64,000 nucleotides of DNA, from contig JBMNLH010000002.1 of assembly GCA_050952625.1 (NCBI GenBank), forward strand, positions 1-64,000, given 5' to 3'. Within the stretch, counting starts at the first letter, position 1; the number at the start of each line of letters is the position of its first letter. Below, in pieces: positions 12,174 through 12,631 of the stretch. This DNA is from Bacillota bacterium. Lineage in GTDB: Bacteria; Bacillota; Ch66; Ch109. The translations under genes and the position numbers were made by a program. The notes below the pieces were generated by a model. The model was not told where the DNA came from. It made no database searches and worked only from the letters and a program-made list of their open reading frames with translations.

Positions 12174-12631
12174 AAGGGTTCATAGTAGCCGAGCTAAGAT
12201 TGTAACAGGTTCAAAAACTGGATCTGTTACAGTCGAGCAAAGGTTAGTACAGGTTCTGAAATTACCGAGAAACTTCTTCTTCAGATATGAAAAAGAAGCT
12301 TCGAAGACGAGAAAGTTCTCAGGGGATCTGTACTAGCCGGAGCGAAGGTTACCGTAGGTCGGTCATTAGACTTCTGAAAAAACAGACTTTGGATCTACGG
12401 TAGCTGAGCCAAGATCGTTATGGGTGCTGGAATGTCTTCTGCTGAATCCATAAGTTAATTGGATCAAAGAAGACAGGGCTCATAATTTCCTAGGATTATG
12501 GGCTCGGTAGGTATCCATAACGGTCGGGCAAAGATCATTATAGGTTGCGTAGGGCTCCTTCGGTAACCGTAAGGTTACCTGGGGTCCGAGGGGATCTATA
12601 ATGGTCGGCGCGAAGGTTACTATGGGCTCTT
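12174..12631 (+). ncRNA. Candidate novel structured ncRNA: six-helix junction with six GAGCNAA-like linkers
   Basis: Closing stem 12174-12190/12615-12631 and five arms with 14-16 bp basal stems that covary between arms; G-U pairs on the + strand; GUAA tetraloop; 3' T-rich tract; no ORF. Confidence 0.75.

Follow-up and report, generated by a model that had tools for sequence, protein, structure and literature searches.

A conserved, structured RNA of an apparently undescribed class with a probable forespore-type promoter in an endospore-forming Firmicutes-type phylum

What is encoded in a 722-nt gap between two convergent genes that holds no open reading frame (ORF) of 40 or more amino acids? 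The gap lies in a 64,000-nt stretch of the genome of a Bacillota bacterium (positions 1 to 64,000 of contig JBMNLH010000002.1, assembly GCA_050952625.1; referred to as the window, in whose numbering all bare coordinates are given), and a preliminary description made from the letters alone had placed in it, at 12174–12631, a star-shaped RNA of six helices. The locus was followed up by structure prediction, by searches for homologues in genomes and metagenomes, and by comparison with contigs from RNA libraries. As a whole, the answer reached was given a probability of about one half: the gap encodes a stand-alone, forespore-transcribed structured RNA of an apparently undescribed class, perhaps a scaffold or decoy. 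The parts of this statement differ in strength and are taken up in turn below.

The plus strand was folded without constraints using RNAfold and gave a multibranch structure of −219.9 kcal/mol (z = −15.3), which was equalled by none of 100 dinucleotide shuffles. The minus strand gave −138.9 kcal/mol (z = −7.9), a far weaker fold, in keeping with the many G-U pairs, and the wobble positions hold across the family. The closing stem (H0) pairs 12175–12190 with 12615–12630 at 16 of 16 positions in the minimum free energy (MFE) structure, has a length of 16–17 bp if 12174 and 12631 are counted in, and is the sixth copy of the helix module. It is followed on the plus strand by linker L1 (GAGCTAA, 12191–12197), arm 1 (12198–12234, a hairpin of 15–16 bp in the MFE structure), linker L2 (GAGCAAA, 12235–12241), arm 2 (12242–12338), linker L3 (GGAGCGAA, 8 nt, 12339–12346), arm 3 (12347–12405), linker L4 (GAGCCAA, 12406–12412), arm 4 (12413–12525), linker L5 (GGGCAAA, 12526–12532), arm 5 (12533–12606), linker L6 (GGCGCGAA, 8 nt, 12607–12614) and the 3′ strand of H0 (12615–12630), which runs into TTTTT at 12630–12634. 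The closing stem, five arms, six linkers, the gagcgtaa at 12168, the ORF-free gap and a terminator upstream were thus all found where the preliminary description had put them. The gagcgtaa that it counted as a seventh linker 5′ of the stem shows only loose conservation in the family, where 26 of the 59 sequences have a tail of RYG-N-A type.

In a blastn search of 40 relatives, clear homologues came up not only within the genus (96% identity) and the family but also in further families of the phylum. These share the closing stem and the five arms and differ in their helix cores. The same architecture was obtained with RNAalifold from 29 full-length sequences (145 pairs, 117 of them with at least one change on both sides) and was recovered again from 59 homologues. 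The covariation alignment (A4) comprised 59 rows from 53 genomes. It omitted G004 (misaligned by MAFFT), G107 (a register problem), G016b, G058 and G138 (closing-stem pick not credible), G151, G083, G088, G139 and G099 (without a 13/13 stem or at a contig end), G001, G003a and G003b (outside an evenly drawn sample of 151 genomes of the phylum), G002 and G005 (reduced forms) and G034 (contig end). Over the 139 pairs of A4, 97.0% of 8135 cells were standard pairs, compared with 73.6% when partners were shuffled and 30–42% when partners were slid by 1–3 columns. Changes on both sides were present at 123 of the 139 pairs, and 0 of 500 shuffles matched the observed value on any of five measures. 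Compensatory changes, whose absence from homologues would have spoken against the RNA in the preliminary description, are therefore abundant. By element, paired cells amounted to 98.9% in H0 (13 of 16 pairs changed on both sides), 99.0% in arm 1 (12 of 15) and 98.0% in arm 2 (11 of 15), the base helix of which is conserved.

Across the 59 rows the RNA measures 331–456 nt (median 397), and the copy in the window, at about 460 nt overall, owes its place as the longest to insertions in arms 2 and 4. Arm 2 reaches 97 nt in the window copy through a lineage-specific insertion and has 34–53 nt in most relatives. Arms 3, 4 and 5 usually run through conserved internal loops into hairpins of 13–15 bp with GNRA-type loops. 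The distal part of arm 3 is shorter and different in this genus, most relatives having a long inner hairpin there; in most relatives arm 4 branches internally and bears a long hairpin with a GNRA cap; arm 5, which measures 74 nt in the majority of relatives, is composed of a base helix, a 3 × 3 internal loop, a 13–15-bp hairpin and a GNRA-type tetraloop. The number of arms, a point raised earlier, does vary, with five in most genomes and three in G002 and G005. This reduced form, from a sister genus (L015/G002 1515–1743; L016/G005 1506–1737), is ~230 nt long and keeps the closing stem and L1, and the convergent gene downstream is unchanged at its loci.

The junction end of each helix retains G-C, R-Y and U-G (or C-G) pairs; next come seven freely covarying pairs, and the helix finishes in GGNUC/GGNUC, which has two-fold symmetry and in which G-U wobbles are conserved. 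In arm 1 these wobbles are G-U at position 12 in 55 of 59 sequences and U-G at position 14 in 50 of 59. The helix module noticed in the window, written GRU-N7-GGNYC / GRNYC-N7′-RYC, is kept across the family. The linkers were then compared by length, type and complementarity. Their lengths repeat with a period of three (7, 7, 8, 7, 7 and 8 nt), and so do their types, L1 and L4 being GAGCNAA-like, L2 and L5 GRSCAAA-like, and L3 and L6 GGMGSGMA-like. Positions 3–4 of L1 (12193–12194) pair with positions 3–4 of L4 in 59/59 and 55/59 sequences (variants GG/CC, GU/AC and AC/GU). Positions 3–4 of L2 pair with positions 4–5 of L3 in 59/59 at both pairs, the first pair being CG in 37, GC in 19, GU in 2 and UA in 1. 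Positions 3–4 of L5 pair with positions 4–5 of L6 in 49/59 and 54/59 (variants GC/GC, UC/GA, AC/GU, GU/AC and GG/CC), and the misses are mostly 7-nt forms of L6 in which the pairing register was shifted by the alignment. Other linker pairings were tried and fitted worse (L1:L6, 38 and 45 of 59; L4:L5, 55 and 39; L1:L2, 15; L3:L4, 18). Since the linkers pair two by two, the core consists of two four-way junctions joined by the 2-bp L1:L4 mini-helix, and it is pseudo-two-fold symmetric, with H0 corresponding to H3, H1 to H4 and H2 to H5. The six equivalent helix-linker sites and radial symmetry of the preliminary description give way to this arrangement.

Two further likenesses were recorded within the arms. 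In nine relatives (L047, L050, L051, L052, L054, L056, L060, L069 and L070) the closing stem has, for its 5′ strand, a second complement (12–13 of 13) in the 5′ strand of arm 5, and the arm 5 segment GGUUCCGUAAUGG is similar to the first part of the RNA; either a vestige of past duplication or an alternative pairing may lie behind this. Positions 12355–12374, in the genus-specific part of the 5′ side of arm 3, match at 19 of 20 positions a spacer ~30 nt past the 3′ end of the 16S ribosomal RNA (rRNA), at three rRNA operons of the same genome (C7:67541–67560, C4:193125–193144 and C1:440741–440760). With E = 0.19 per match, this likeness is probably due to chance.

The two ends of the RNA were considered next to its fold. 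The 3′ end has the form of an intrinsic terminator as predicted from sequence, a 16-bp closing stem directly before TTTTT, and a T-rich tract directly follows the closing stem in most of the 59 homologues. Taken together, closing stem and T run resemble an intrinsic terminator whose ‘loop’ is very large; the loop limit of the terminator scan was 8 nt, which made such a terminator uncallable by the scan. At the 5′ end, a −35 box, GTATA (12138–12142, plus strand), is followed after 14 nt by a −10 box, GGACAAAATA (12157–12166, plus strand), which ends 8 nt before the closing stem. From the position of the −10 box the predicted primary transcript would start at ~12172–12175 and end in the T run at 12630–12634 (12172–12634, plus strand).

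These boxes are conserved in position and sequence. Over the 59 homologues, the −35 box has G in 38, A in 55, T in 57 and A in 47 at positions 1, 3, 4 and 5, respectively, and the −10 box has G1 in 52, G2 in 49, A5 in 59, A7 in 37, T9 in 59 and A10 in 57. The predicted promoter of the family reads G[YA]ATA, a spacer of 14 nt (37/59) or 15 nt (18/59), and GGnnAnA[A/C]TA, and in most homologues it ends 4–10 nt ahead of the closing stem. The −10 motif was found in 52 of 59 genome loci (shuffled upstream regions: mean 5.1, maximum 13) and both boxes in 34 of 59 (shuffles: mean 1.2, maximum 5). The same rule was applied to 54 distinct metagenome and viral loci that lay outside motif discovery, and the −10 motif was found in 47 and both boxes in 39 (shuffles: 4.2 and 0.86). 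The best sigma-A-like match in the upstream regions reached 6–9 of 12 positions, and no sigma-70-type promoter was called on the plus strand between the upstream terminator and the RNA. In PMC11599450 (section 7), the Bacillus subtilis SigF consensus is given as −35 GYATA and −10 GGnnAnAHTR, with an example of a 14-bp spacer; the window promoter, GTATA-N14-GGACAAAATA, agrees with it. Clostridioides difficile SigF and SigG promoters are described as alike and as similar to those of B. subtilis, a G upstream of the −10 box marking SigF (PMC3789822). Similar elements were found at sporulation genes of the same genome: one spoIIR copy is preceded by GTATA-N15-GGTCAAAATG and gpr by GAATA-N14-GGGGAAATTA, and the SASP genes carry variants of the motif without GG. 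Judging by this promoter, the RNA is probably transcribed by a forespore-type sigma factor, SigF and likely also SigG.

The distribution of the RNA was determined with a covariance model, R1, built from its 5′ part (the closing strand, L1, arm 1, L2 and the start of arm 2). R1 matched 64 of the 151 genomes of the phylum sample, corresponding to 60 of 140 high-quality genomes and 55 of 129 genera. It matched none of 101 genomes of a control phylum (that of an alphaproteobacterium). In metagenomes (sediment, fermentation, bioreactor and others), a degenerate pattern spanning L2 to L3 was found in at least 120 contigs, and 61 of the 83 metagenome and viral loci studied (L110–L192) hold a complete RNA with a perfectly paired 13-bp closing-stem core. 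Within one endospore-forming phylum of Firmicutes type, and likewise in anaerobic metagenomes, the family is thus widely spread.

Presence of the RNA was then compared with presence of SpoIIR. The genome of the window encodes Spo0A, two copies of SpoIIR, GPR and SASPs, from which its lineage is judged to be endospore-forming and of Firmicutes type; ribonuclease P of type B stayed under its cut-off score there. SpoIIR is encoded in 128 of the 151 phylum genomes, and all 64 RNA-positive genomes are among them; the RNA was found in 0 of the 23 SpoIIR-negative genomes (Fisher’s p = 9e-7). The conserved promoter and this restriction to spoIIR-bearing genomes, both missed in the preliminary description, would place the RNA in sporulation. 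Among the sporulation genes themselves, the two spoIIR copies lie at C4:311505–312114 and C1:675616–676107, the SigF-type motif (by regular expression) being present at the C4 copy only. The C1 copy directly follows an ORF whose end reads, by eye, like the C-terminus of a sigma factor. At C1:762175–763575 a SASP gene adjoins, divergently, the gene for the germination protease, gpr.

Whether the RNA belongs to a known family was examined with the 4227 models of Rfam 15. The window gave no match at gathering score and none at E ≤ 10 that overlapped 12160–12640, and among 13 other members searched at E ≤ 1 the sole match was a chance one outside the RNA. The preliminary description had not recognised a known family, and none was found in Rfam 15 for the window and 13 relatives. 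No description of such an RNA was found in the full-text literature, including the text of the surveys PMC8040213 and PMC5737381; supplementary motif tables lay outside this search and may list it. The family thus seems to represent a class of large structured non-coding RNA without an earlier description.

In function, the nearest counterpart is CsfG, which is encoded on the reverse strand of the Rfam family ‘ylbH leader’ (RF00516). According to PMC9147052 and PMC8583004, CsfG is a forespore-specific, stand-alone non-coding RNA whose expression is controlled by SigF/SigG; endospore formers conserve it, and neither a target nor a phenotype is known for it. Almost the same type of promoter, GTATA-N14-GGACATAAATA, was found at a CsfG-type locus in the phylum. 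The two RNAs differ in form: CsfG is 136 nt long with CU-rich loops (PMC3574147), whereas the RNA described here has its median of 397 nt, is almost fully paired and is without CU-rich single strands. RF00516 had no match in the window or in the rest of its genome. In the phylum sample, 33 of the 64 genomes with the RNA and 35 of the 87 without it have ylbH-like matches, which lie at other loci, and the RNA was rejected as a replacement or homologue of CsfG, the two occupying different loci and being neither linked nor mutually exclusive. As a separate observation, the ylbH model at E ≤ 0.001 matched 68 of the 151 phylum genomes and only 4 at gathering score; with its curated cut-off the model would seem to overlook the majority of the CsfG-like RNAs in the phylum.

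Expression was assessed from metatranscriptome contigs. The stretch that bears the RNA occurs in anaerobic-digester, biogas and bioreactor samples, and contigs of four studies cover 12172–12627 (X17), 12188–12626 (X16), 12183–12607 (X20) and 12189–12700 (X15), at word depths on the RNA of ~4–22. On the flanking genes, coverage was limited to one piece, at depth 2.8, within the downstream gene and to 33 nt of a foreign contig; stretches of the window free of RNA contigs are not read as silent. This coverage supports an abundant, discrete RNA, short of proof. The plus-strand transcript predicted earlier is matched in this way by RNA-library contigs, from which its strand is unreadable.

The same contigs bear on a reading of the RNA as a precursor that is cut at the linkers to release five hairpin small RNAs, which had been offered among the earlier proposals. 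Tandem hairpins of like design with short conserved linkers between them would suit such a precursor. The RNA-library contigs of the four studies cross all linkers, however, and the linkers covary in pairs, pointing to a structural role; the stems are fully paired with variable cores and hold no conserved guide sequence, and the transcript ends are locked in the closing stem. A cleaved precursor is on these grounds disfavoured and very improbable.

A DNA-level element (a miniature inverted-repeat transposable element (MITE), repetitive extragenic palindrome, cruciform, recombination site or single-strand origin) was likewise weighed, given the many inverted repeats and the two IMG/VR contigs that carry the RNA. 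In the IMG/VR collection 3 contigs matched the L2-to-L3 pattern; two of them, filed as viral (L111 2275–2569 and L112 5559–5853), hold a full copy of the RNA with identical R1 scores, and the third (L110) is without an R1 match. The GenBank phage and PLSDB plasmid collections gave no match to the RNA. The genome of the window (2.9 Mb, 9 contigs) holds the RNA in a single copy, all other blastn matches being of 22 nt or less, and relatives carry 1–2 copies per genome; the dispersed copies that would have pointed to a MITE or single-stranded DNA element are thus absent. Against such an element also stand the conserved G-U pairs, which would be A-C mismatches on the other strand, the strong asymmetry of the strand energies, the conservation of promoter and U tract in one orientation, and the coverage of the RNA by RNA libraries that leave its flanks uncovered. 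The possibility that the locus acts as DNA can hardly be maintained.

Nor is the RNA likely to belong to its neighbours. Upstream lies a GH57 branching-enzyme gene with a BE_C domain (10314–11945, plus strand), and downstream, in convergent orientation, a gene for an 821-aa NTP-transferase / hexapeptide / phosphoglucomutase fusion (12668–15133, minus strand). In this family of genomes the RNA is found between these two genes of glycogen metabolism, which could suggest a cis-acting 3′ or 5′ untranslated element. Between the GH57 gene and the RNA, however, the terminator scan called a terminator (11972–11991, plus strand) that lies outside the RNA and separates two transcription units; the downstream gene is convergent, the RNA has its own conserved promoter, and the neighbours differ in nearly all other genomes. 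No conserved neighbour gene was found, the largest shared set of flanking ORFs being present at 4 of 30 genome loci and 5 of 61 metagenome loci, and flanking genes are held in common only among close relatives. A cis-regulatory role is therefore ruled out in practice, the chance left to it being minute, and no partner protein is indicated by association. The independently transcribed plus-strand structured RNA of the preliminary description is borne out by its own promoter, by the lack of conserved neighbours and by RNA-library coverage, and it is highly probable that the locus is a stand-alone plus-strand gene for a real structured RNA of a conserved family.

The surroundings of the locus (9256–16489) form a glycogen/alpha-glucan gene cluster, an arrangement common only to the closest relatives, which also includes genes for a DUF4912 protein (9256–10284, plus strand) and a GT4/starch-synthase-like glycosyltransferase (15194–16489, minus strand). 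Elsewhere, the most recurrent neighbour, seen at metagenome locus L139 and four others (5 of 61), is by eye a Spo0A-like response regulator whose side and strand vary.

What might such an RNA do? Under the proposed mechanism, forespore RNA polymerase with SigF, and probably SigG, would start a few nucleotides before the closing stem, and transcription would end at the U tract past it, with both RNA ends locked in a helix. A compact RNA with protected ends would be made in the developing spore and would act as a folded RNA, neither antisense nor in cis. Its partner would be a protein, bound in several copies or as a dimer, with an affinity for the repeated helix module (which includes the two-fold symmetric GGNUC/GGNUC with its G-U wobbles), and the RNA would act in spore development, dormancy or germination. 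About 70% of the nucleotides of the RNA are paired, and conservation lies in the junctions, helix ends, internal loops and GNRA loops, with no conserved seed among the single strands, which makes an antisense regulator unlikely. A role as a stable protein scaffold or decoy is put forward tentatively, as the candidate favoured here over the other functions.

Two known systems bear on the idea. CsrB and RsmZ sponges carry repeated, near-identical units in each transcript, and this likeness is the basis of the scaffold or decoy proposal; the unit of those sponges is a short GGA loop motif that mimics many messenger RNA sites, whereas the unit here is a 16-bp helix without further copies in the genome. 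The 6S RNA, an abundant, highly paired, stand-alone RNA, is a folded decoy for RNA polymerase. It is a rod with a central bubble, in contrast to the branched junction described here. The RNA was rejected as a replacement for 6S, since the genome of the window has an ordinary 6S gene elsewhere (sole match C1:639058–639238, 97.9 bits).

Several points weigh against the overall answer and were set against it. The co-occurrence counts come from related, non-independent genomes, and 64 of the 128 SpoIIR-positive genomes are without an R1 match, so that the RNA is to be regarded as accessory to sporulation and not universal. The regular expression for the promoter is not enriched genome-wide (21 matches vs 18.3 in shuffles); the sigma assignment therefore rests on two things, the fixed position of the motif at over 100 loci and its agreement with the consensus in the literature. 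Promoters of SigF resemble those of SigG, and a good match is missing at 7 of 59 loci. The RNA-library contigs show neither strand, ends nor level, and DNA may be included in them. A search of the same genome for the strict helix module returned none elsewhere (2 matches, both arms of the RNA; control, 1), and the RNA is therefore not obviously a mimic of many natural sites, unlike classic sponges.

A bolder form of the proposal, which we regard as doubtful, is a spore-specific RNA machine: the pseudo-two-fold symmetric, six-helix RNA, its synthesis restricted to the forespore, would fold by itself or together with a dimeric protein into a defined, nuclease-resistant particle that persists in the dormant spore and is needed for a step of dormancy or germination in anaerobic spore formers. 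Assembly by RNA alone, in which the helical bundle would homo-oligomerise through GNRA tetraloops and helix receptors and the structure itself would be the function, for example in spore encapsulation or protection, is considered unlikely. Its arms are long and rod-like, with conserved GNRA-type loops (GAAA in arm 5, GAGA in arm 4) and internal loops; the design is repeated and pseudo-symmetric, and no protein gene is conserved beside it. The assignment of tetraloops to receptors is guesswork, however, and no tertiary or intermolecular contact was detected. Among known RNAs, the ornate orphan RNAs OLE, ROOL, GOLLD and raiA are similar in being several hundred nucleotides long, stand-alone and abundant, with multistem junctions and heavy covariation, mostly in Firmicutes or anaerobes. 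The RNA differs from them in that it gave no match to their Rfam models and in that they are not built from repeats of one helix module. We know of no sporulation sigma-factor promoter described for any of the four. Precedent for assembly by RNA alone comes from OLE, ROOL and GOLLD, large bacterial RNAs that form RNA-only multimers (PMC12286853), and disruption of raiA is reported to affect sporulation (PMC10861870).

A ribozyme or a ligand- or ion-binding RNA, in which the double four-way junction would be the active site or pocket and the arms a scaffold only, is improbable. It would account for the junction linkers being the most conserved single-stranded nucleotides, and large, complex, conserved RNAs are often biochemically sophisticated, as argued in PMC5737381 (section 17). 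Set against this, no known ribozyme or riboswitch family of Rfam 15 was matched, the RNA adjoins no regulated gene, and the three-arm forms of G002 and G005 keep the closing stem and L1 and lose much of the junction. Six helical domains around a central junction also recall group II introns in shape only; there was no match to an intron model, no intron-encoded protein and no flanking exons, and the helices of the RNA are copies of one another. Between these possibilities, the scaffold or decoy reading remains the one we prefer.

Large, highly structured bacterial RNAs are rare, and most known classes are biochemically remarkable (rRNAs, ribonuclease P, transfer-messenger RNA, group I and II introns, OLE, ROOL, GOLLD and raiA). 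The significance of the present family lies above what a reading of one locus could show, the RNA being widespread, strongly covarying and modular, with a concrete forespore setting. Unlike most orphan RNAs, it carries a promoter agreeing with the SigF consensus that hints at when and where it is made. Its recognition also means that Rfam is still without a common RNA of anaerobic Firmicutes. If the spore-specific RNA machine were true, the forespore programme would have its first large structured RNA, and nature would offer an example of an RNA that arose as one helix module was duplicated six-fold. The RNA would add a post-transcriptional or structural RNA part to a forespore programme that is now described almost wholly through proteins.

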